Origin: a bacterium
GTDB taxonomy: Bacteria; Patescibacteriota; Microgenomatia; Daviesbacterales; UBA10151
Direction: 5' to 3'
DNA: 64,000 nucleotides
NCBI GenBank assembly: GCA_021786105.1
Contig: JAJYNW010000015.1
Location: 1 to 64,000, forward strand
Below the pieces are notes generated by a model that worked only from the letters and a program-made list of their open reading frames with translations, had not been told where the DNA came from and searched no databases. Shown here piece after piece: positions 1,981-61,705 of the stretch. A program made the translations under genes and the position numbers. Within the stretch, counting starts at the first letter, position 1. Every line of letters starts with the position of its first letter.

Positions 1981-2000
1981 GTGGTAAACTATAGCATAAT

Positions 2001-2085
2001 TAGTGTCTAGAGTCGAGAGTCAAGAATCTAGACAAGAAGACAAAGAAAACACTAGTCTCTAAATTCTAGCGACTAGTCACTAACT
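2001..2085. repeat. 7-nt-periodic imperfect palindrome (CTAG/GACTAGTC family)
   Basis: TAGTGTCTAGAGTCGAGAGTCAAGAATCTAG...CTAGTCTCTAAATTCTAGCGACTAGTCACTAACT; 2069-2089 is identical to the reverse complement of 42149-42169. Confidence 0.8.
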
Positions 2086-4686: not shown

Positions 4687-4730
4687 ATGATTATCTTGGG
4701 CATTGAATCTAGCTGTGATGAAACTGCAGC
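4687..4730 (+). repeat. 44-bp duplicate of the tsaD 5' end (left direct repeat of TA cassette)
   Basis: ATGATTATCTTGGGCATTGAATCTAGCTGTGATGAAACTGCAGC matches 5433-5476 at 42/44, both differences synonymous. Confidence 0.9.
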
Positions 4731-5033: not shown

Positions 5034-5452
5034 CTGCTAGCAAAACTGTATTCTTAACTATAAATCAAGTGCTTTTTGTCCACGATCAAATGGTCAAAAG
5101 ATTTGGTGGCTCACATGGTATCCGTGATGTCGGACTTATTGAATCAGCGGTAGCAAGACCACAAGCTACTTTTGGAGGTAAATATCTTTATACCTCTATC
5201 TTTGATAAAGCTGCATCATTACTTCAGTCTTTACTTAAAAACCATCCATTTGTAGATGGAAATAAACGCACGGCTCTAACCTCTGCTGGTCTGTTTTTAT
5301 GGAAAAATGGTTACAAACTTAATAATAAACACAAAGAAGAAGTAGAATTTGCAGTTAGGGTAGACAACGGAAATTTAACTGTTGAACAAATCTCCCAATG
5401 GCTCCAGAAGCATTCTGTTAAAATATCCTCATATGATTATCTTAGGAATTGA
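5030..5452 (+). CDS. doc: Fic/Doc family (death-on-curing) toxin
   Basis: GIRD.GLIESAVARP and NHPFVDGNKRTA motifs. Confidence 0.9.
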   Translation: MTASKTVFLTINQVLFVHDQMVKRFGGSHGIRDVGLIESAVARPQATFGGKYLYTSIFDKAASLLQSLLKNHPFVDGNKRTALTSAGLFLWKNGYKLNNKHKEEVEFAVRVDNGNLTVEQISQWLQKHSVKISSYDYLRN

Positions 5453-6584
5453 ATCTAGCTGTGATGAAACTGCAGCCGCCATAGTGCAAAAGTCTAGGAA
5501 TGGGGTAAAAATTTTATCCAATGTGGTGGCATCGTCAGCTCAACTACAATCTAAATACGGAGGTGTAATTCCGGAACAAGCCGCCCGGGAACAGCTAAAA
5601 ACCATCATCCAGGTTATCGAAGAAGCGCTTTCCCAAGCTAATTTAATCAGTCATCCCGAACTAGTTTCGGAATCTAAAAAGATGCTAAACATTGACGCTA
5701 TTGCTGCCACCTATGGTCCGGGTTTAATCGGTTCGCTTCTTGTTGGCGTTGAAACTGCCAAAGTTTTAGCCACAATTTGGGACAAACCGCTAATTCCGGT
5801 AAACCACCTGATCGGTCATTTTTACGCCAATTGGATCAGCTCCTCCCAGCCAAAATTCCCCTGCATTGGCTTGTTAGTTTCCGGCGGTCACACCGACTTG
5901 GTACTTTTTGAAAATCACGGAAAATATAAATACCTAGGCGGCACCCGGGATGATGCTGCTGGTGAAGCTTTTGATAAAACCGCCCGCCTCTTGGGTTTGC
6001 CTTATCCTGGCGGCCCGGCCATCGCTAAACTCGCCAAATCCGGCAACCCTAATGCTTTTGACTTACCCCGCCCCATGATTGATTCGAAGGATTTTGACTT
6101 TTCCTTTTCCGGCTTAAAAACTGCCGTAGCAAACCTGCTAAAAAATGAGGGTGTGCAGTCTCCGAAGGCCGCGAACTCTAGACGAGCGAAGCGAGCGTAT
6201 CCAAGTCCCGCCAAAGGCGGGACGCAAGACGCTTGCGTTAGTGGGCAAGTTAGCGGGACTGCCGACCGAAATACTCTTCCAGATCTTTGTGCCTCCATTG
6301 AACAGGCTATCAGCGATGTATTGGTAACAAAGACTATTAGGGCCGCCCAAACCTTTAATATCGATCAAATTATGGTTGCAGGTGGCGTGGCAGCAAATCA
6401 GAAGTTGATTTTTGATTTGAAATTAAAAATTGAAAATTTAAAATTAAAAATTAATTTGCATGTGCCTCCTCCTGAACTTTGCACTGACAACGCCGCCATG
6501 ATTGCCTCAGCCGGCTTTTTTAATTATCAACCAGTAGATACTTCTACTATCCAAGCTAACCCTAATCTTTCATTAACTCATTGA
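5433..6584 (+). CDS. tsaD: tRNA N6-adenosine threonylcarbamoyltransferase TsaD
   Basis: ILGIESSCDETAAA, GPGLIGSL, NHL.GH, SGGHT, TRDDAAGEAFDK, FSFSGLKT, CTDNAAMI motifs; true start ATG 5433; carries repeat-derived insertions. Confidence 0.95.
   Translation: MIILGIESSCDETAAAIVQKSRNGVKILSNVVASSAQLQSKYGGVIPEQAAREQLKTIIQVIEEALSQANLISHPELVSESKKMLNIDAIAATYGPGLIGSLLVGVETAKVLATIWDKPLIPVNHLIGHFYANWISSSQPKFPCIGLLVSGGHTDLVLFENHGKYKYLGGTRDDAAGEAFDKTARLLGLPYPGGPAIAKLAKSGNPNAFDLPRPMIDSKDFDFSFSGLKTAVANLLKNEGVQSPKAANSRRAKRAYPSPAKGGTQDACVSGQVSGTADRNTLPDLCASIEQAISDVLVTKTIRAAQTFNIDQIMVAGGVAANQKLIFDLKLKIENLKLKINLHVPPPELCTDNAAMIASAGFFNYQPVDTSTIQANPNLSLTH
5650..5690. repeat. in-frame REP/RPE-like palindrome remnant inside tsaD
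   Basis: GTCATCCCGAACTAGTTTCGGAATCT...GATGCT, translated as SHPELVSESKKML. Confidence 0.6.
6150..6265. repeat. in-frame nested palindromic element inside tsaD
   Basis: GCAGTC(6155)/GACTGC(6257) outer arms, CGAGCGAAGCGAG motif, GTCCCGCC-AAA-GGCGGGAC hairpin; about 40 extra residues in the protein. Confidence 0.75.
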
Positions 6585-17014: not shown

Positions 17015-17017
17015 AAA

Positions 17018-17857
17018 TTATTTTCCTAGACTCTTGACTCTAGTCACTAGACTCTCTAATCCGCCCCAGCCGGAAATCCGATGCTGTTGGATTATTCCCA
17101 GTATTGTATACGTATTCCAATAAATTGCAAGCCCCGCCGGAAAAGAGAAAGCAAAATAGCCAATCATGATCGGCATCAAATACACCATTTGAGACTGAAC
17201 CTGAGTCATGCTTTCTTCTACAGTTTCTTTCTCCTTCTTCTCTTTGGATGAATCAGTCGGGTAAGGCTTAACCGGTTTCGGCAAAGTCATCTGCGACTGA
17301 ATAAAAGTTAAGACTGCTGTCAGCAGGGGGATTAACAACAAAAAAACACCATGACTGTCAAACTGTGAAGGCCTGATACCTAAATTAATGCCAAAAAAAT
17401 TCGGGTCAATGGTGGCCGGCAGTTTCAGTTGGGGAAAATATAGTAAAGAGTTAATTTTATCCAGGTGGCCGCCTGCTCCCGGCAAGATATTAATGATTGA
17501 TTGATAAAGGGCAATAAAAACCGGAATCTGGATTACCGCCGGCAAACAGCCACCAGCCGGGTTGACCCCGTGTTCCTTATAAAGCGCCATTTGGGCAGCA
17601 GCCAAGGCTTGCTTATCGTCTTTAAGTTTTACCTTTAAAGCATCCAAGTGAGGTTTTAGCTCCGCCATCTTTTTAGTCGCCTTCATTTGAGAAGCCATAA
17701 ACGGCCAAACCAAAAGTCTAATTAATACAGTTAAAATCAGGATGGAAAAACCCAAGGCTCCGGGAATATGCAATCCTTGCAAACCTTGAAATATTAATAC
17801 CAGTAAATTTATCACTGGAGCAAAAAATATTAAATTAAAAATATCACCAATGTTCAT
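17018..17857 (-). CDS. yidC: membrane protein insertase YidC
   Basis: LYKEHGVNPAGGCLP..IQIPVFIALY and PAGLAIYW motifs. Confidence 0.94.
   Translation of the reverse strand: MNIGDIFNLIFFAPVINLLVLIFQGLQGLHIPGALGFSILILTVLIRLLVWPFMASQMKATKKMAELKPHLDALKVKLKDDKQALAAAQMALYKEHGVNPAGGCLPAVIQIPVFIALYQSIINILPGAGGHLDKINSLLYFPQLKLPATIDPNFFGINLGIRPSQFDSHGVFLLLIPLLTAVLTFIQSQMTLPKPVKPYPTDSSKEKKEKETVEESMTQVQSQMVYLMPIMIGYFAFSFPAGLAIYWNTYTILGIIQQHRISGWGGLESLVTRVKSLGK
17026..17058. repeat. 7-nt-periodic element arm encoded in the yidC C-terminus
   Basis: CTAGACTCTTGACTCTAGTCACTAGACTCTCTA, same family as 2001/29269/41770/42156/47855. Confidence 0.65.
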
Positions 17858-20598: not shown

Positions 20599-20600
20599 TA

Positions 20601-20673
20601 GCTATCAGTCATCAGCTTTCAGCTATCAGATTTAAAAAGTCTGAAGACTGACGACTGAAGACTGACGACTGAT
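20601..20673. repeat. 7-nt-periodic palindrome upstream of dnaN (TCAG/CTGA family)
   Basis: GCTATCAGTCATCAGCTTTCAGCTATCAG...CTGAAGACTGACGACTGAAGACTGACGACTGAT-ATG. Confidence 0.75.
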
Positions 20674-28946: not shown

Positions 28947-29056
28947 AATCTCAAATCTTAGATCTCAAATCGCAAATCTACATCTTAAATTTAAAAACTT
29001 TTAAAGCTTTGAGTTTTAAGTTGCAGTTTTGACCTTTGACATTTGAGATTTGAGTT
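28947..29056. repeat. 7-nt-periodic AT-rich palindrome (TCAAAT/TTTGA family)
   Basis: ATCTCAAATCTTAGATCTCAAATCGCAAAT...TTTGACCTTTGACATTTGAGATTTGAG. Confidence 0.7.
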
Positions 29057-29067
29057 TGTTATTTTAT

Positions 29068-29266
29068 GGAGGTGGTATCTCAGGTCGAAGTTTCGACCCA
29101 AGAGATAATGGGAACCAGGTGCAAATCCTGGACTGTGCCGCAACGGTAATTGTTAGGGTTTAGGGTTTAGATTTCTTGCGATTTCTAAAAGCGCAGCTTT
29201 CAAGCTTTGCTTATACCCTATTGGCTATACCCTAGTCTCTAACATTAGTCCGGAGACCGACCACGC
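29068..29266 (+). ncRNA. cobalamin riboswitch
   Basis: GGT-ATCTC...GAGAT-AATGGGAA-CCAGG-TGCAAAT-CCTGG-ACTGTGCCGCAACGGTAA...AGTCCGGAGACCGACC fits the core consensus, including the T-loop hairpin and B12 box. Confidence 0.8.
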
Positions 29267-29268
29267 TT

Positions 29269-29344
29269 AGTGACTAGTCGCTAGTGACTAGAGTCAAGTG
29301 TAATTTGCTTTTTCCAGACTCTAGTCACTCGATTCTAGATTCTA
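29269..29344. repeat. 7-nt-periodic palindrome (CTAG/GACTAGTC family) after the riboswitch
   Basis: AGTGACTAGTCGCTAGTGACTAGAGTCAAGTG...GACTCTAGTCACTCGATTCTAGATTCTA. Confidence 0.8.
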
Positions 29345-29368
29345 TTTTAAATCCCGTGCAGGAGCCAT

Positions 29369-30307
29369 ATGCCAGTATCAGAACGAGAACGAACAGCTAT
29401 TGCCAATATTGCAGGTTGGAGAAACACCGCCCCTGCTCAATTTGCAGAAGAATTAGCCTCTTTAAGTTTGGAAACTCATAGAATTGCAGACCCCTATTCT
29501 TATTTGATTACAGCGAAAGGAGAATTGTTTTCACCTACAGCTAGATGTCTGATTAAAGATACCATCGATGATAAAACTAGTTTGTTAGGTAGATTAGAAT
29601 ACCAAGCTGTTTTAGTCACTGAGCAATGGGTAGCTAACAATAATGAGGGAGTAAGTATTTGGGTTAGCCCACCAAAAAAAGGAATATATCCCACCTCTAA
29701 AATAATTGTTCAGGAAATAGTGCATGAAGGCGGAGTGAAGAAATTATTCAACCGGGCCATTGTTTTGGATTTTAACGAAGAACAATGTATGAGGTTTGCT
29801 TGGAATCTGACTAGTTTTAGCCACAATAAGCCTATTTTCAGAGACTTGGATGAGATTAGAGCTATTCCTTTAGTATTGAATACTCAAAATAAATCTTGGA
29901 TTGATATCTTGGAAAAATTAATTGATGTTCCGAAAGTTTGGGCAATGATTCGAAACGGAGAAGATAAGCAGTATAAAAAAGAGACCCTCAGGCAGGCTGT
30001 AATAGTCCAAAAGCAGTTCTTTACTGATTCCAGGCTATCTTATTCAGATGAAGCAAAAATAGCCGTTATGCAAATGCTAGGGTCAAAATCCGGCAGTTGT
30101 CCGCCGCGATCTGGTACTCAGGGCAGAACAGCTTTTCAAGCTATTGCCGGTTCTGCCGTGACAGTTGGCAGTGGAGGGGGATTGGTCGAATCAGATCAAT
30201 ATGGGTCTTTGGAGTTTGAGTGCCCAAAGTGCAAGAAAACAAATACCAGACCAAAGGGTCAACTAATACCAAACTGCCAGCATTGCGGGCAAGATGTCCG
30301 TTGTTAG
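29369..30307 (+). CDS. hypothetical protein with C-terminal zinc ribbon
   Basis: AGGAG SD; GSCP motif; CPKC...CQHC...C at the C-terminus. Confidence 0.75.
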   Translation: MPVSERERTAIANIAGWRNTAPAQFAEELASLSLETHRIADPYSYLITAKGELFSPTARCLIKDTIDDKTSLLGRLEYQAVLVTEQWVANNNEGVSIWVSPPKKGIYPTSKIIVQEIVHEGGVKKLFNRAIVLDFNEEQCMRFAWNLTSFSHNKPIFRDLDEIRAIPLVLNTQNKSWIDILEKLIDVPKVWAMIRNGEDKQYKKETLRQAVIVQKQFFTDSRLSYSDEAKIAVMQMLGSKSGSCPPRSGTQGRTAFQAIAGSAVTVGSGGGLVESDQYGSLEFECPKCKKTNTRPKGQLIPNCQHCGQDVRC

Positions 30308-41141: not shown

Positions 41142-41474
41142 CTAACTTTGGAATAGCTGGAGATTGGTAATTCCGAATAAACTGGACAGTAAAAATTGCA
41201 GAATGATAAAGGCAAACATTAAAATAATAAAGCCAATGATGGCGTGAGTAATCATTTGTCTGGCTCCGGCAATTTCTTCTTTATTCCCGCCAGATTTTAA
41301 CCAATTAAAAGCTCCCCAGAGGAAATAAATTACCACTGCAGCCGCGGCAACGGAAAATATGGTAGGAACTAACTTGCTGATGATGTCTCCAAAAGAAGAA
41401 AATGATGGGCCAAAGCCAAAACAGTCTTTAATTGATACGCCGGAGGGGTAAGGGGGAGTAGGGCAGGGGTTCAA
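41142..41474 (-). CDS. VirB2/TrbC-like pilin
   Basis: GAFNWLKSGGNKEEIAGARQMITHAIIG motif. Confidence 0.82.
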   Translation of the reverse strand: MNPCPTPPYPSGVSIKDCFGFGPSFSSFGDIISKLVPTIFSVAAAAVVIYFLWGAFNWLKSGGNKEEIAGARQMITHAIIGFIILMFAFIILQFLLSSLFGITNLQLFQS

Positions 41475-41767
41475 AATGGTACCCCTCCTTTCGGTTGTAA
41501 AACTTCTGCCACAAATTTGGCCACAAAGAAAGCCAATAATACTATGATCAGACCAAGGATGGCCCAGGTGATCCTGGCCCGGGCTTTGGCCAAATCTTCT
41601 TTTTTCCCCTGGGCCATAATGTAAGAAATTGCGCCCCAGATTAAATAGGTAAAGGAGAGGAAAACAGCGGCAAAAAAAGCAATGTTGATGAATACGGAAA
41701 GCAGGTCACCTAAAGTTTTCTGAGGTGCAGGATTAGCTTTAAAAATATCGTTTAAGCCAGGTATCAT
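41471..41767 (-). CDS. VirB2/TrbC-like pilin
   Basis: GAISYIMAQGKKEDLAKARARITWAILG motif. Confidence 0.82.
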   Translation of the reverse strand: MIPGLNDIFKANPAPQKTLGDLLSVFINIAFFAAVFLSFTYLIWGAISYIMAQGKKEDLAKARARITWAILGLIIVLLAFFVAKFVAEVLQPKGGVPF

Positions 41768-41769
41768 AA

Positions 41770-41805
41770 TAGTGACTAGTCGCCAGAGTCTAGAGTCAAG
41801 TGGAT
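41770..41805. repeat. 36-bp perfect direct repeat (copy 1; copy 2 at 42156-42191)
   Basis: TAGTGACTAGTCGCCAGAGTCTAGAGTCAAGTGGAT at both sites. Confidence 0.92.
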
Positions 41806-42152
41806 TTCAATAAACCACTTAAGATTCTAGCTGTTTCTGTATGAATATCTAATATTCTCTCATAATCTTGAGAGTTTATAAACTTTCTTTCATAAGCAAA
41901 ATCAATAAAAAATTCTAGTTCTGTTAAAGATGCGACTGCCATTTGATAAAAATGTTTTCTATCTTTTAAACTACTTCTGCTGTATCCCTCAGCTATATTG
42001 GCGCAAACAGATAAAGCAGCTCGACGCATTTGGGAAATTAGTCCGAAAATTTCGTCTTTAGGGAAGTTGGTTGTTTCATCGTAAATTAAATGAGTTAGCA
42101 GATTACTTTTTTGCCATGCAATTAATTTTCTGTAACCTTTATTATTTCGCAT
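41796..42152 (-). CDS. four-helix-bundle protein (23S rRNA IVP/Avd-like family)
   Basis: L.AWQKS, FPKDE.FGL.SQMRRAALSV.ANIAEG.SR...F...A..SL.E motifs. Confidence 0.92.
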   Translation of the reverse strand: MRNNKGYRKLIAWQKSNLLTHLIYDETTNFPKDEIFGLISQMRRAALSVCANIAEGYSRSSLKDRKHFYQMAVASLTELEFFIDFAYERKFINSQDYERILDIHTETARILSGLLKST

Positions 42153-42231
42153 AGTTAGTGACTAGTCGCCAGAGTCTAGAGTCAAGTGGATGGCTGTTTT
42201 TCTAGACTCTAGATTCTAGACTCTTGACTCT
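42153..42231. repeat. 7-nt-periodic palindrome upstream of the four-helix-bundle gene
   Basis: AGTTAGTGACTAGTCGCCAGAGTCTAGAGTCAAG...TCTAGACTCTAGATTCTAGACTCTTGACTCT. Confidence 0.85.
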
Positions 42232-43387
42232 GATGAAACCCAGGTATATTTAATATACTCACTCCAATAATCTGTAAAAGCAAAATACTAAAAATTACAA
42301 ATAATAATCCAATAATGGCACTGGTTACTCTGCTGCGGCCGGCGCTTAAGGTTTCCGGATTACCGGCTGAGGTGAGCATCTGAAATGCCCCCAGCAGCAT
42401 CATTAAAAATGATAAACCTCCGCCGATGCCAATGGTAAATGTTAGAAAGTCTTTAACCAACTCAGGAGGATTGGTATGGATGCAGCCAATGGCAGTAGGG
42501 ATACCAGGGTTAGGGTTAAGTTTGGTTGGGTCGTTTGGATCCTGAGGGTCATTGCATCCGGGAACTAGATTACCCATGGCAAGGGAGCAATCTTCTGGTT
42601 TGACGCATTGTTTTGTTATATCTGGTAGAACGGGGCATTGCCCGCCCTCGCCGCTTCCCAGCACCCCGACGGTAAAGCATACCGGAGCGCACTCAATACG
42701 ATTATTTTTCCCTATAACCACGGTATAAATACCCCCATTAAATTTTCCTAAGTTCTTGCTAAGGGTGGAGGGATCTGCGGGATCAAAATTGTTATTGGAA
42801 AATTTAATTTCATTATTGATATAGATATCATAACTACCCTTATTAATATTCTGTGCCGATAAAATGACATCTGTGGTTGGATCAATCGGTTTGGTCTCTA
42901 TAGTGCTGGTACAGTTTGATTGCGCAGGAGCATTTTTAAATTCAAAAGTATCCTGGCAAACGATATTTCGAGGTGTTGGAGGTTTACCCTTTTCCATGGC
43001 AGTAATGATATAGGTGCCTAAATTCCATTTGTCATGTCCCCAGCTAGCAGGCCAGCCATTAGGGGGATGTTGTATTATGAGCGGAGCGGGGGTGTCTGCG
43101 CCAAAAGTAATATCGTTTACGTTATAAATATTACCGGCAGGGTCTTTAATTTGGAACCAATAAAGAGTTGGGGTTAAATCTTTTGAAGTATTGGTAACAG
43201 TAATTTTTAAATCGCCTATATTTTGATTGAGTGATCCTTTGGGAGGATCGTAGTCGAAGCTACATTCGGTCGCTGCGAATGTATTTACAGGTAGGAAAAA
43301 TGAGGTAAAAGAAAAAACTAATATTACCGTAAATAATTGCAGGAGGATTTTGGACATTAACCTCAGCTTAGCACGAAATTCATTCAA
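42209..43387 (-). CDS. large pilin-like protein: beta-rich extracellular domains plus C-terminal VirB2-like module
   Basis: Signal peptide; IPTAIGCI and GAFQMLTSAGNPETL.AGR.RVTSAIIG motifs. Confidence 0.75.
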   Translation of the reverse strand: MNEFRAKLRLMSKILLQLFTVILVFSFTSFFLPVNTFAATECSFDYDPPKGSLNQNIGDLKITVTNTSKDLTPTLYWFQIKDPAGNIYNVNDITFGADTPAPLIIQHPPNGWPASWGHDKWNLGTYIITAMEKGKPPTPRNIVCQDTFEFKNAPAQSNCTSTIETKPIDPTTDVILSAQNINKGSYDIYINNEIKFSNNNFDPADPSTLSKNLGKFNGGIYTVVIGKNNRIECAPVCFTVGVLGSGEGGQCPVLPDITKQCVKPEDCSLAMGNLVPGCNDPQDPNDPTKLNPNPGIPTAIGCIHTNPPELVKDFLTFTIGIGGGLSFLMMLLGAFQMLTSAGNPETLSAGRSRVTSAIIGLLFVIFSILLLQIIGVSILNIPGFHQSQESRI

Positions 43388-46002: not shown

Positions 46003-47855
46003 TGAAACTTAAGATTGCTCAAGTCGTTGGTCTGAATACCGATCAAAAAGCTGCTCAAGTCACCTCGGCCGCCAGGGATGATAATACCTTTCTGGCGGTT
46101 TTAGAGATGTCTTGTGATGATGCTTTTACTAAAGGCCGGCAGGCTTTATCAGAGTTGGAAGACTTCTATTTTGAGTTTGAGGGGAATGCCACCGAAAGAT
46201 TAAATGCTACCTTTACCGAAGCAGAAAACAAATTATCCAAAGGCGGTGAATTTGATTTAGTGTTGGCCACGGTTTCCGGCAAGGTGTTGTACCTAATTGG
46301 TAAGGGTCAGGTGGAAGTTTATTTAAAACGGGGAGAAAAGTTGTCACCGCTTTTGTCGGTAGGTGCGTCCTCACAACTTATTTCCGGTTTTTTGCAAGAC
46401 GATGATAAATTCTTACTTTGCACCGGTAGCTTGGCTGCCTTTCTAGGCTCAGAATTGGAAAAATCCTTAAGCTTGCCGATTGAAAATTTTGAGGAAGAGG
46501 TAGGCAGTAAAATTGGCACCTCTGATTTAGATAGCCAAGGGCTGGCTGCTTTAGCGGTGGAAGCTTTGGAGGGGAATCTGGAAATTGCCCCGATTGTTTC
46601 TCATGAGGATTTGGGCCGGGTATCTCAGTCAGAAGAGCGGGCTATTGAAAATACTGTTAAAAAACCGCTAGTTCTTATTCCTGTGATTGCGGATAGGGTT
46701 TTGAGGTTATCCAGACGGTTGGGGTCCTATTTCCCAAAGTCTGGTCGGGGACGGCTGATTGTGGCAGTTGTTTTAATTCTCATTATTATTGCCGGTGTGG
46801 GCTATAAATATAAAACAAGCCGTGACCACAAAATTCAGATCCAATTTAACCAGTTATTGCAGGAAGCTAAGGATGATTTTAACGGAGCTAAGGGAATTGC
46901 CAGTTTGAGCCCGGCTGATGCCAAGAGCAAACTGGATCAGGCTAAAGACCTGATTAGTAAAGCTTTAGTTTTAAAGCCGAATGATCAAGAGGCCCAAAAT
47001 TTCAAAAAACAGCTGGAGAGCGAATCGTCATCAATTTTACAGCAAGCTGAAGTATCGGAATTCCCGGTGTTTTTGGATTTGGATTTAATCAAAAAAGACT
47101 TTCGGGCCACTCAAATGAGTTTATCTGGCGGTAAATTGTTACTTTTAGACCCGGGAATTAAAACTTTGGTGGTGATTGATCTTTCGAAAAAGAGTAATCA
47201 GATTTTGGCCGGATCAGAACAGTTGGGGGAGGCTGGCTTTGCCTCGTTAAACGGCGGACTGGCCTTTATTTATTCTAAAGATAAGGGGATTTTAAAGATT
47301 GATACTAACAATCAAAAAACTACCAAGGTGGCCAAAAAGGATGATGAGTGGGGACAAATTGCTGATGTTTATGGCTTTGCCGGTAATGTTTATGCTTTAG
47401 ACTCAGGTAAAAAAGAGACGCCGCAAAGCGGACAAATCTGGAAGTATCTGCCAACCTCTGATGGTTATTCCGACAAAAGGATGTATCTGAGCAAAGATGC
47501 TAAGGTGGATTTTAGTGGTGCTTTAAGGATGCAGATTGAATCTTCGATTTATGTGCTCAAAAGCGGGGGAGAGATTTTACGGTTTACCAAGGGCGATAAA
47601 GACAATTTTTCCCTGAGCGGGTTGGACAAAGGGGTTAAGGATCCAAAGTCTTTCTTTGTTTCTTCTGATACTGATAATCTATATTTGTTGGATTCCGGTA
47701 ATTCCCGTCTGCTGATTTTAACTAAAACCGGCAGTTATAAAGGACAGATGGTCGGCAGTAAGTTTGCTACCTCTTCGGATTTGGTGGTGGATGAGGCCGG
47801 GAAAAAGGTGTATTTGCTGGATGGAAGTAAGATTTATACCGCAGACCTCAAATAA
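46002..47855 (+). CDS. membrane protein: PP2C-like N-domain, TM, helical linker, beta-propeller
   Basis: ISGFLQDDDKFLLCT; TM; repeated .Y.LD blades. Confidence 0.65.
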   Translation: MKLKIAQVVGLNTDQKAAQVTSAARDDNTFLAVLEMSCDDAFTKGRQALSELEDFYFEFEGNATERLNATFTEAENKLSKGGEFDLVLATVSGKVLYLIGKGQVEVYLKRGEKLSPLLSVGASSQLISGFLQDDDKFLLCTGSLAAFLGSELEKSLSLPIENFEEEVGSKIGTSDLDSQGLAALAVEALEGNLEIAPIVSHEDLGRVSQSEERAIENTVKKPLVLIPVIADRVLRLSRRLGSYFPKSGRGRLIVAVVLILIIIAGVGYKYKTSRDHKIQIQFNQLLQEAKDDFNGAKGIASLSPADAKSKLDQAKDLISKALVLKPNDQEAQNFKKQLESESSSILQQAEVSEFPVFLDLDLIKKDFRATQMSLSGGKLLLLDPGIKTLVVIDLSKKSNQILAGSEQLGEAGFASLNGGLAFIYSKDKGILKIDTNNQKTTKVAKKDDEWGQIADVYGFAGNVYALDSGKKETPQSGQIWKYLPTSDGYSDKRMYLSKDAKVDFSGALRMQIESSIYVLKSGGEILRFTKGDKDNFSLSGLDKGVKDPKSFFVSSDTDNLYLLDSGNSRLLILTKTGSYKGQMVGSKFATSSDLVVDEAGKKVYLLDGSKIYTADLK

Positions 47856-47924
47856 GAGTCTAGTCGCTAGAGTCTAGAATCTAGTACAATCTACCTTGAC
47901 TCTAGACTCTTGATTCTAGCCACT
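47855..47924. repeat. 7-nt-periodic palindrome (CTAG family) upstream of smpB
   Basis: AGAGTCTAGTCGCTAGAGTCTAGAATCTAG...CTTGACTCTAGACTCTTGATTCTAGCCACT-ATG. Confidence 0.8.
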
Positions 47925-48365
47925 ATGAAAATAGTTAATAAAAAAGCTCTTCATAATTACCATATTTTGGAACACTTGGAAGCCGGGATTGTCTTATCCG
48001 GGGCGGAAGTTAAATCCATTAGGACCGGCCGGATTGATTTAGGTGAAGCTTATGTACGGATTTTAAATGGGGAGGTATATTTGGTAAATGCCAATATTCC
48101 CCGTTATAACCAGGCGGCAGATAAAGAATATGATGCTCAGAAATCCCGGAAATTATTGCTTCATAAAGACCAAATTAATTCATTAATCGGCAAAACTTCC
48201 GGCAAAGGGGCAACTTTAGTGCCGGTTTCCATCTATGAAAAGCATAATAGGTTTAAGGTAGAGGTGGGGTTGGCTAAGAGTAAAAAAGAATTTGATAAGC
48301 GAAAGATAATCAAGGAACGTGATCATGCTCGCAGGGTGGAGCAGGAGCTCCGCGGAAAAGAATGA
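47925..48365 (+). CDS. smpB: SsrA-binding protein
   Basis: NKKA.HNY, EAGIVL.G.EVKSIR, RKLLLHK, K.FDKR..IKER motifs. Confidence 0.96.
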   Translation: MKIVNKKALHNYHILEHLEAGIVLSGAEVKSIRTGRIDLGEAYVRILNGEVYLVNANIPRYNQAADKEYDAQKSRKLLLHKDQINSLIGKTSGKGATLVPVSIYEKHNRFKVEVGLAKSKKEFDKRKIIKERDHARRVEQELRGKE

Positions 48366-48426: not shown

Positions 48427-48847
48427 GGGGATGTATTGTCTCGACAGGATTGCTCTTTAAAAACTGCAAGCCGCTTAGGAAACATTAAGCGTTAAATATT
48501 GTTTCAAAACACAAACGGCACAAGTTATTTGTCCCGTGCTGCAGGCAAAATGGCTGAGCAGATGTCTGACTTTGGGAGAAATCTCTTAGTTGGCTCTACT
48601 CGAGTCGCTTTCGCTTAAAGCTACTTTAGGTCATATCTTCTTTCTGACGGGATACTAAGGTACGTACAAAGTCAGGATGCTGTTGGCAAAGTGTTGGTTG
48701 ATCTTTGCTAACAAAAGACGACTCAATCATTCATTAGTTTTCCTGCTAATTGGTTACAACTAATGAACAAAAATTAATTAGCTAAGCTTGTAGAAGTTTG
48801 AGAAGTTACAATTTTGGACGGGGGTTCAAAACCCCCCATCTCCACCA
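48427..48847 (+). ncRNA. ssrA: tmRNA
   Basis: 5' GGGGATGT...TCGAC, 3' GACGGGGGTTCAAAACCCCCCATCTCCACCA; tag ORF ending VAFA*; directly after smpB. Confidence 0.95.
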
Positions 48848-48865: not shown

Positions 48866-49564
48866 GTGGGCTTAATCCTCGATTTGTTATTTCCCAAAAG
48901 GTGTGTGGGTTGCAAGAGATTTGATAGCTACTTTTGTCAGGATTGCATCAGGAATATTTTACAAACTGATTTAGTGTGCCCTCAATGCGAGAAACTGGCC
49001 ATGGGCGGTCAAACTCACCCAATTTGCCGGAGACGATTTGGTTTAGATGGTCTTTGGAGTTTAGGTATTTACCAGGGATCTTTGAGGGAGGCCATCAAGC
49101 AGCTAAAGTATGGTAAAGTCCGTGGTTTGGCAGAAGCTTTAACAGATATCACTTTAGAATATTGGGTTAGATACCAGCCATTTATATTAGACCAAATTAA
49201 GAAAGATGCCGGTAAGGGATGGGTAGTTATTCCCGTGCCCTTACATTGGTGGAGGGGCAATGATAGAGGTTTTAATCAATCTTCTTTAATCGGACAACTT
49301 TTAGCTCAAAAATTGGGTTTAACTTATGCTGATGGATTGAAACGTGTACGTTACACCAAATCTCAAGTAAAGCTAAAAGGTAAAGATCGCCACTATAATA
49401 TCCGAAACGCTTTTGAAATTTCTAAACCCTATACCCTAAACCCTAGTCCCTATGTTTTATTAATCGATGATGTCTGGACCACCGGTTCCACTTTGCGCGA
49501 GTGTGCGTATGTTTTGAAAAGAAATGGGGCCAAAAAAGTTTGGGCAATAACCTTAGCAAGATAA
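48866..49564 (+). CDS. comF: ComF family competence protein
   Basis: LLFPKRC..C Zn finger; PVPLH..R...RGFNQS; LLIDDV.TTGSTL motifs. Confidence 0.92.
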   Translation: MGLILDLLFPKRCVGCKRFDSYFCQDCIRNILQTDLVCPQCEKLAMGGQTHPICRRRFGLDGLWSLGIYQGSLREAIKQLKYGKVRGLAEALTDITLEYWVRYQPFILDQIKKDAGKGWVVIPVPLHWWRGNDRGFNQSSLIGQLLAQKLGLTYADGLKRVRYTKSQVKLKGKDRHYNIRNAFEISKPYTLNPSPYVLLIDDVWTTGSTLRECAYVLKRNGAKKVWAITLAR

Positions 49565-61574: not shown

Positions 61575-61705
61575 AAAAGCTCCCCGCTAGCGATGGCTTG
61601 CGCCACCTGCAAACCTTTCGGTCTGCAACCTTCGCAGGTGCTCTAACGAGGAGCTGTTTCCTGCGAAGGTTTTGATGCCATGCCCCTTACGGGGTTTAGG
61701 CAATA
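61575..61705 (-). ncRNA. candidate structured RNA (four-way junction with GNRA loops, alternative pairing)
   Basis: Four GNRA-capped hairpins and G-U-compatible stems on the minus strand; TATAAT at 61721-61726 (minus). Confidence 0.6.

Follow-up and report, generated by a model that had tools for sequence, protein, structure and literature searches.

What kind of element is the small gene for a predicted four-helix-bundle protein that lies between two identical 36-mers inside a pilin operon, and how is it related to similar hairpins, lacking the gene, that stand in front of other start codons of the same genome? The locus occupies positions 41770 to 42231 of the window, by which we mean the whole stretch of 64,000 nucleotides (nt) analysed here (positions 1 to 64,000 of contig JAJYNW010000015.1, assembly GCA_021786105.1), from a bacterium of the Patescibacteriota (Microgenomatia; Daviesbacterales; UBA10151). 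A preliminary description of this DNA had offered two possibilities, a pair of gene-bearing and gene-less mobile elements with no classical transposase, or an RNA-binding regulon acting on 5' ends. The locus is best described as a PF05635 cassette, similar to the intervening sequences (IVSs) of rRNA, that lies in an operon spacer, has undergone a secondary duplication of one arm and is accompanied by a family of gene-less derivative hairpins. Taken as a whole, this reading, in which an rRNA-IVS-like cassette with its gene in the loop of inverted heptamer arrays sits in an mRNA operon with its 3' arm duplicated, seems to us probable.

Anatomy of the cassette in the pilin operon

The genome that holds the window (G000) comprises 1.04 Mb in 26 contigs and is 92% complete. 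The same-strand neighbors of the cassette are a gene for a 392-amino-acid (aa) protein and two genes for small proteins resembling pilins of type IV secretion systems (T4SS). On the transcribed minus strand the order runs from the end of the 392-aa gene through an arm, a loop, and a second arm to the four-helix-bundle gene, and from there through a further arm to the ATG of the 98-aa gene. The parts are as follows.

41769..42235, minus strand: whole composite insert, 467 nt, delimited by the 41768/42236 joint in contigs of two public runs
42209..43387, minus strand: upstream host gene for a 392-aa protein whose C-terminus is pilin-like
42200..42235, minus strand: hairpin 5' arm (L), built of about 4.4 AGAGTCT-type heptamer units, outer edge taken from the 41768/42236 joint
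42192..42199, minus strand: short A-rich loop of a gene-less-type hairpin, preceding the gene
42156..42191, minus strand: 36-mer copy 1, which repeats the final 10 nt of the gene together with the 3' arm (R) of 26 nt
41796..42152, minus strand: four-helix-bundle gene, 118 aa, PF05635/TIGR02436 (rRNA-IVS protein family)
41770..41805, minus strand: 36-mer copy 2, the original 3' arm (R)
41471..41767, minus strand: downstream host gene, 98-aa T4SS-pilin-like membrane protein

As the preliminary description had it, the 36-mer is exact at 41770-41805 and 42156-42191, and a search of the whole genome returned no third exact copy. The upstream copy forms the 3' arm of a hairpin at 42156-42231 whose arms are periodic at 7 nt, again in agreement with that description, and it terminates in the end motif of the hairpin family 3 nt ahead of the four-helix-bundle ATG. 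The downstream copy overlaps the last codons and stop of the four-helix-bundle gene and ends 2 nt before the downstream pilin-like ATG, and the upstream pilin-like open reading frame (ORF) takes its final 8 codons and stop from the 5' arm at 42200..42235. The two arms of the core cassette can pair only approximately, and each holds some four imperfect 7-nt units.

In the closest genome of the genus (G008), the same slot holds a simple form of the element, consisting of arm, 4 nt, gene, arm, and next ATG with no duplication, which indicates that the upstream 36-mer copy in G000 is secondary. The G008 gene, located on a 770-kb contig, is an orthologue with 87% aa identity, and the sequence ahead of the four-helix-bundle gene in G000 equals that found ahead of the downstream pilin gene in G008. 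The arms of the two genomes are identical at 64 of 66 positions, though 45% of synonymous sites in the gene differ (pS = 0.45).

Gain, loss, and replacement at gene junctions

The comparison set consists of 19 genomes of the genus (G000 to G018), in 17 of which the pilin slot is assembled. A genus search yielded 88 PF05635 matches in 18 genomes, from which 68 genes were drawn after exclusion of about 13 suffix-domain-type frames (about 180-235 aa) with weak matches, a pseudogene in G004, a truncated copy (L127), an ORF running off the end of its locus (L141), one fragment, and one duplicate row. The filter took ATG starts only, so that three loci with GTG or TTG starts (L122-L124) are absent from the 68. 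The state of the pilin slot across the genus is as follows.

Slot with a PF05635 gene (9 genomes): G000, G008, G005, G010, G014, G003, G017, G002, G016
Slot with an unrelated 231-aa ORF (1 genome): G007
Slot empty, 27-105 nt, with no hairpin (7 genomes): G013, G011, G009, G012, G015, G004, G001
Slot unassembled or not found (2 genomes): G018, G006

In a phylogeny of the 68 proteins, the nine genes from the slot are spread over five or more distinct groups with good support, each of which carries its own heptamer type. The starred branches force at least five changes of the slot label, the maximum-likelihood tree needs six, and PF05635 copies from outside the slot are nested within the same clades as the slot genes. 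One such copy, a member of the type-1 clade in G002, is located between two mevalonate-pathway genes; the orthologous empty site for this cassette was sought in G000, where the flanking mevalonate-pathway genes are absent.

An allele without the insert also exists in public data. One contig in each of the runs X4 and X5, which come from two studies and have depths of 7 and 16.5, connects 41768 with 42236 through 7 other letters that replace the 467-nt insert; the upstream stop overlaps the downstream start there. The flank of these contigs differs from the window at 7 of 103 positions and therefore belongs to a relative, much closer than G008, in which the insert is missing altogether. As the cassette is common to G000 and G008, the X4/X5 allele reflects either a clean loss or an allele imported by recombination. 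The preliminary description had suggested that filled and empty sites be compared in relatives, and the result of that comparison is gain, loss, and replacement at fixed junctions.

The gene-less hairpins show a similar variability. A profile search of G000 found 14 loci of this hairpin family, ten full and four half elements, and BLAST places the family in at least 14 of the 19 genomes, in dozens of copies, up to 15 candidates per genome being scored. The four gene-less sister elements that had been described in the window, the first of them from about 2001 to 2085, were all recovered.

1999..2085, plus strand: gene-less hairpin whose end motif stops 3 nt short of the ATG of an M50 peptidase gene; the corresponding site in G014 also carries one
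17016..17058, minus strand: half element (L-arm type) at the yidC end, 11 nt before a KH/R3H (Jag/KhpB-like) ATG
29268..29346, plus strand: gene-less hairpin in reverse orientation, immediately following a cobalamin riboswitch aptamer, with 25 nt separating it from the next ORF
47851..47925, plus strand: gene-less hairpin filling the gap from the stop of a 622-aa ORF to the smpB ATG

Elements abut the ATG at 41767 of the pilin-like gene and that of smpB at 47925. The start of the four-helix-bundle gene shares 21 identical nt with 2069-2089, in front of the M50 peptidase gene. On these two points, too, the preliminary description was accurate. The family is asymmetric, its 3' arm ending in a nearly invariant 17-nt motif with an 8-nt palindromic core; a 14-nt core of this end motif occurs five times in G000, each time at a hairpin end. 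In about 30 of the 51 copies read across the genus, the distance from the end motif to the ATG of a long ORF is -1 to +6 nt, and the genes behind the hairpins are unrelated to one another (S12, S3, SmpB, PNPase, AtpG, TrmD, M50 peptidase, Jag-like, and pilin-like). Many hairpins occupy orthologous sites in two or three species. The hairpins are identical at 62-79 of 85 positions in six of seven such site groups, where the adjoining third codon positions are only 36-62% identical (measured in five of these six groups); in the seventh group the figures are 46/85 for the hairpin versus 20/44 for third codon positions. At the rpoC-rpsL junction, compared in 17 genomes, one genome has the hairpin, two have another AT-rich palindrome, and 14 have spacers of 1-21 nt. 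Gene-less hairpins are insertion-polymorphic between species. The consensus of the gene-less loop resembles, at its start, the 5' arm running into the first codons of the type-1 gene and, at its end, the last codons of that gene. Because the loop resembles both gene ends in this way, we infer that the gene-less hairpins derive from the cassette by internal deletion and represent the cassette minus its gene.

The hairpin at 29268..29346 adjoins the cobalamin riboswitch aptamer (Rfam RF00174, 52 bits), which ends inside it, the two together spanning 29056-29346. A short T-run and a Shine-Dalgarno (SD)-like motif lie between this hairpin and the ORF at 29369, and the hairpin may have been taken over as the expression platform of the riboswitch. 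More heptamer arrays are found nearby at 28947-29058 and 29153-29170. Other heptamer types (AGCTATC/CTGACGA, CTAAACC, and AT-rich) are represented by gene-less hairpins at 20600-20672, 49422-49452, 6405-6454, and 28947-29058, and the first two of these types bracket, in other genomes of the genus, PF05635 clades that G000 lacks. Two half elements of the 5'-arm type lie near contig ends in G000 (C10:4885-4920 and C12:131-164) and are followed by the same unrelated 13-nt stretch; contigs C10 and C12 may abut or share another repeat. Other features of the window are a transfer-messenger RNA gene directly after smpB (48427-48847), a LOOT RNA match at 61592-61702 (90 bits), and two 44-nt stretches (4687-4730 and 5433-5476) that are 95% identical, lie 746 nt apart, both begin with ATG, and look like the duplicated 5' end of a gene.

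Association of PF05635 genes with heptamer arrays

The period-7 CTAG pattern to which the preliminary description had pointed is evident genome-wide. CTAG spacings of 7, 14, and 21 exceed chance in G000, runs of at least three CTAG-type heptamers number 12 in the genome versus 0-1 in ten shuffles, and period-7 regions number 18 versus 0-2 for every other lag from 4 to 12. Tandem Repeats Finder detected many further heptamer hairpin types in this genome.

A comparison of the 68 PF05635 genes with control ORFs (792 G000 ORFs of at least 150 aa) ties these arrays to the gene family. With a threshold of at least 14/21, a lag-7 signal was found upstream of 49 of the PF05635 genes, downstream of 49, and on both sides of 40, whereas the controls gave 21, 22, and 1, respectively; at lags 4-6 and 8-11 the counts for the 68 genes were 0-6. 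The three loci L122-L124, read separately, each score at least 14/21 on at least one side. Complementarity between the flanks (threshold at least 16/20) was detected at 42 of the 68 genes versus 10 of the 792 controls, and the arm duplex has a folding energy of -21.9 kcal/mol versus -12.8 kcal/mol for mismatched pairs. Arrays are uniform in length, with 2-5 units, a median of about 4, and none above 4.7 among the 80 scored. The association extends to named records outside the genus, found by tblastn on plasmid records (eight loci: six cyanobacterial plasmids, Gemmatirosa, and Azospirillum). Arrays of 7-nt units (8-9 nt at one locus) adjoin the gene on at least one side at all eight and on both sides at six. 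The Azospirillum plasmid copy lies within 23S rRNA sequence and is thus a true IVS with heptamer arms. Within the genus, G009 (96% complete) is the sole genome with no PF05635 match, and no period-7 region was found in 241 kb of it; ten other genomes of the genus have 2-14 period-7 regions per 100 kb, versus 0-0.7 for other lags. This one result favors a dependence between arrays and gene at the scale of the entire family.

Several cassettes have noteworthy surroundings. Two with an apparent GTG start and heptamer arms of their own (L122, G013:C8, and L124, G008:C1:245217) are placed, judging by eye from the flanking translations, between an EF-Tu-like stop and an S10-like start. On three cyanobacterial plasmids (Pseudanabaena, L157; Anabaena sp. 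90, L158; and Picosynechococcus, L161), four-helix-bundle genes with arrays are embedded in CRISPR-cas operons, where they separate cas6 from cas4, precede cas4, or separate cmr2 from cmr3. The arrays of the Pseudanabaena plasmid comprise 13 units upstream and 11 downstream and are direct, not inverted. The motif CTAG is under-represented about three-fold in G000 (1267 seen versus about 3700 expected by composition), yet is central to the hairpin arms. The co-orientation of PF05635 genes with their neighbors (45/55 upstream and 40/56 downstream) was judged, without a control, to be ordinary operon structure and was set aside.

Direct repeats that bracket the gene, as the 36-mers do here, were detected (threshold at least 21/24) at 7 of the 68 PF05635 genes versus 6 of the 792 controls. 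They are exact in G000, in G016 (26 nt, including the ATG of the next gene), and at one gene of G002 (31 nt); the repeat takes in the gene's own last codons in G000 and G002, and a mirror form is present in G003. Two routes could have produced the G000 arrangement. A gene-plus-arm unit may have been tandemly duplicated or unequally recombined, with the first gene copy then lost, or a circular gene-plus-arm copy may have recombined into an arm of a resident gene-less hairpin.

The protein itself belongs clearly to the IVS protein family. The 118-aa sequence matches PF05635 with an E value of 1e-31 (109.7 bits, cut-off 33.8) and TIGR02436 with 101.6 bits (cut-off 24). The preliminary description had called it IVP/Avd-like, and the Avd part of this assignment did not hold at the level of family models, as the protein falls below the cut-offs of both NF033474 (29.8 bits, cut-off 80) and PF22296 (34.3 bits, cut-off 40). 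Its predicted structure has four helices (predicted local distance difference test score 94) and is closest to XCC0516 (2GSC; template modeling [TM] score 0.92, sequence E value 9e-15), followed by BT_0352 (2RLD; TM score 0.82). Both 2GSC and 2RLD contain five chains, and the 118-aa protein is probably pentameric. Avd, the accessory protein of diversity-generating retroelements (DGRs), has the same fold (TM scores of 0.77-0.79 to PDB 4DWL and 8UB7, 13-14% identity) and acts as a pentamer that holds reverse transcriptase and its RNA, which makes a nucleic-acid role for the 118-aa protein plausible. The homology of PF05635 and Avd has been remarked upon in a DGR paper (PMC10053308). Unlike the setting of Avd, no match to reverse transcriptase (PF00078) was found in this 92% complete genome, and a DGR link was rejected on that ground. 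The dN/dS ratio is 0.04-0.10 in eight orthologous pairs and 0.07-0.10 for the G000 gene against its orthologues; judged by these ratios, the four-helix-bundle protein is under purifying selection.

A second kind of four-helix-bundle protein was seen in G000 at C3:13526-14071 (minus strand). This 181-aa protein carries a "suffix" domain (TIGR04258, 60 bits) and adjoins an ORF that looks, by eye, like an ATP-dependent DNA ligase. A 9-nt periodic array lies just upstream of its ATG, and a similar in-frame array lies between its two domains. In about 12 of the 19 genomes, frames of about 180-235 aa give weak PF05635 matches.

Known systems, rival explanations, and significance

MITEs (miniature inverted-repeat transposable elements), Correia elements, and repetitive extragenic palindromic (REP) sequences or bacterial interspersed mosaic elements (BIMEs) with their REP-associated tyrosine transposases (RAYTs) are short dispersed hairpin repeats at gene junctions whose presence varies between relatives. 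MITE-type families also have a longer, gene-bearing form, of which the shorter form resembles an internal deletion. The dispersed copies described here (14 loci) and their presence or absence at the rpoC-rpsL junction and the pilin slot are reminiscent of such families. Unlike in those families, the long form here lacks a transposase, no target duplication was seen, and the arms are tandem heptamers. A connection to RAYTs was considered and rejected. The Y1 genes of G000, four of them RAYT-like (214-229 aa) and one IS200-like (143 aa), at C20:58288, C12:12192, C26:9088, C14:12447, and C23:7624, are each bracketed by their own short GC-rich palindromes, with lag-7 scores of at most 13/21 and no heptamers.

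In Coxiella burnetii, the 23S rRNA IVS (helix 45) has two or three tandem heptamers before the S23p start, in a copy number that varies between strains, and is excised by RNase III; older proposals hold that IVSs are mobile, the IVS ORF of Coxiella is argued to be decaying and untranslated, and S23p IVSs are also named for Leptospira, Brucella, and Xanthomonas (PMC4990558). The element described here shares with these a PF05635 gene between stem-capable inverted repeats, heptamers beside the ORF start, and a scattered distribution. It differs from them in lying between protein-coding genes and not in helix 25 or 45 of a 23S rRNA gene (no rRNA was found in the window by Rfam), in its one duplicated arm, and in its many gene-less derivatives before other genes. 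Its gene is under strong purifying selection, in contrast to the decaying Coxiella ORF.

Heptanucleotide repeats have been described as TAACTGA in Beggiatoaceae, cyanobacteria, and Bacteroidetes (PMC4679880) and as GGGAATC in Xanthomonas and Nostoc, with 70-75 convergent pairs in Xanthomonas (PMC4692102). Like the arrays reported here, these are intergenic 7-nt units that often end a few nt from a start codon without a ribosome-binding motif; they often form convergent pairs, and close strains differ in 7-nt steps. The present arrays are unlike them in being short (2-5 units) and hairpin-paired, in having a non-periodic end motif, and in being tied to PF05635 genes. In a term search "S23" was found in neither paper, and "four helix" and "intervening sequence" were absent from PMC4679880. 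A study of candidate phyla radiation (CPR) bacteria tabulates 23S_rRNA_IVP ORFs in rRNA insertions, and its text contains no word beginning with "heptam" (PMC11270868). In the open full-text literature, with subscription journals outside the search, the PF05635 family and heptamer repeats were found together only in the Coxiella IVS paper, in a passing note.

These observations suggest how the element most likely works. Gene junctions would gain, lose, and exchange cassette and hairpins as whole units, no recognizable transposase being involved, and the element would be transcribed together with its host operon. Its arms would pair, as DNA or as RNA, and the selected, Avd-related protein would act on the heptamer arms of its own and other elements, keeping or spreading them. 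More broadly, the PF05635 ring protein might be the trans-acting partner of heptamer-array hairpins, perhaps with one 7-nt unit per protomer, and the two together might form a class of transposase-less insertable elements, gene-bearing and gene-less, that includes the ORF-bearing rRNA IVSs and explains much of the heptanucleotide-repeat excess at gene starts. This broader proposal is a tentative one, to which we attach well under even credence.

A number of results weigh against these readings. No target-site duplication was found at the pilin slot or the rpsL insertion when compared with their empty sites, and the element encodes no recombinase or transposase, its sole ORF being that of the 118-aa PF05635 protein. 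The insertions seen are all old, with a synonymous divergence (dS) of 0.7-1.4 between gene copies, and even the youngest hairpin shares no more than 88% identity with any of the others. The local hairpin (-24.3 kcal/mol, z score -1.55) is not unusual in stability, and the idea that it is exceptionally stable was dropped. Sense RNA folds no better than antisense (hairpins 8 versus 19, cassettes 39 versus 29), and selection at the RNA level, sought as a G-U asymmetry, was likewise rejected, as none was found. Proteins at least 55% identical bear quite different heptamers. The type-1 gene is present in three of the 19 genomes, and its hairpin family has matches in 14; G004 and G015 have the hairpin family together with one or two PF05635 matches of other kinds. 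The idea that a hairpin type is kept together with its cognate gene in one genome was rejected on these counts, which also go against the co-occurrence of repeat subtype and four-helix-bundle clade that the preliminary description had envisaged. A graded relation between PF05635 count and array density was rejected as well, the correlation being weak (Spearman 0.36, p 0.28, 11 genomes). The case with neither PF05635 gene nor arrays is a single genome, G009, and the genomes of the genus are related, so counts across them are non-independent. For the mobile pair of the preliminary description, the filled and empty alleles, the five or more clades in one slot, the polymorphic hairpins, the gene-like loops, and the PF05635-array link all speak in favor, and no obligate pairing of repeat subtype with its own gene was found.

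Three other explanations were weighed. It is highly improbable that the 36-mer bracket is an artifact, either a mis-assembly across the repeated arm or a gene-plus-arm unit that exists as a free 386-nt circle. In a graph of contigs built with k = 31, the 36-mer is a separate node at about double depth and both paths are possible, so that an integrated arm-gene-arm is indistinguishable there from a gene-less hairpin plus a 386-nt circle, a further point against the reading of the locus preferred here. However, the depth of the gene piece equals that of the flanks in four public runs, the orthologous gene occupies the same slot of G008 on its 770-kb contig, and analogous arm duplications are found in the independent assemblies of G016, G002, and G003. 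A more serious alternative, though one we consider unlikely, is that hairpins arise and spread independently, by 7-nt slippage and palindrome formation or by a host process, and serve as landing pads for a passenger gene that is swapped between loops by homologous recombination through the arms, with a protein function unrelated to the repeats. This would fit the great excess of gene-less hairpins over genes, the existence of hairpin types whose gene the genome lacks (in G000, for example, AGCTATC/CTGACGA and TAGGGTT), and the distribution of the hairpin family (14/19 genomes) relative to its cognate gene (3/19). Prokaryotic heptanucleotide excess has also been described without reference to this gene in passages of two papers (PMC4679880, PMC4692102), and the order arm-loop-arm-gene-arm is the product expected from recombination in one arm. 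On the other hand, a passenger would need a very strong preference for loops to account for arrays on both sides of 40/68 genes versus 1/792 controls, with many unrelated heptamer types. The final codons and stop of the gene are often part of the arms, the seven species with an empty slot have no hairpin there in which to land, the arrays are uniformly 2-5 units long (80 measured), unlike the products of free slippage, and the genome without the gene family (G009) had no arrays in 241 kb.

The regulatory alternative holds that the host uses the hairpins as cis-elements of 5' leaders and operon spacers, acting on processing, stability, or start-codon access, that the four-helix-bundle protein is a trans-acting RNA-binding regulator, and that differences between species reflect regulatory turnover. 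It can draw on the end motif that abuts start codons in one orientation, on arms at orthologous sites that are far better kept than synonymous sites, on the purifying selection on the protein, and on the presence of an RNase III gene in G000, as the stems of the Coxiella IVS are RNase III substrates (PMC4990558). One hairpin copy follows the cobalamin riboswitch, and the only SD-like motif of rpsL lies at the 5' foot of its hairpin. A hairpin between SD and ATG was rejected as a general design, however, as an SD-like motif was found at the 5' foot in only 8 of 50 copies; G000 is SD-poor in general (142 of 795 ORFs versus 76 of 795 in a control window). A role of the arms as promoter or terminator was also rejected, with promoter-like sites (9 versus 6.7 expected) and terminator-like sites (3 versus 2.4) near expectation. 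The downstream genes are unrelated housekeeping genes without a common theme, sense RNA is not favored over antisense, many genomes have hairpins without the matching gene, and the same junctions work hairpin-free in most relatives. No RNA run was among the public runs holding the stretch. The regulon on 5' ends put forward in the preliminary description thus received no support, and we regard such an explanation as quite improbable. We retain the IVS-like cassette with gene-less derivatives as the description of this locus.

To our knowledge, no function is known for PF05635/TIGR02436, a very large family of which structures have been solved, and heptanucleotide repeats beside start codons and rRNA IVSs are two old observations for which we know of no explanation. 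The genus studied here provides a compact natural experiment that ties together PF05635, start-codon heptamers, and rRNA IVSs, with one junction that is filled by five different family members or empty and one genome that is without both the gene family and the repeats. It also bears on the annotation of small-genome (CPR) bacteria, in which such hairpins fill operon junctions before essential genes.

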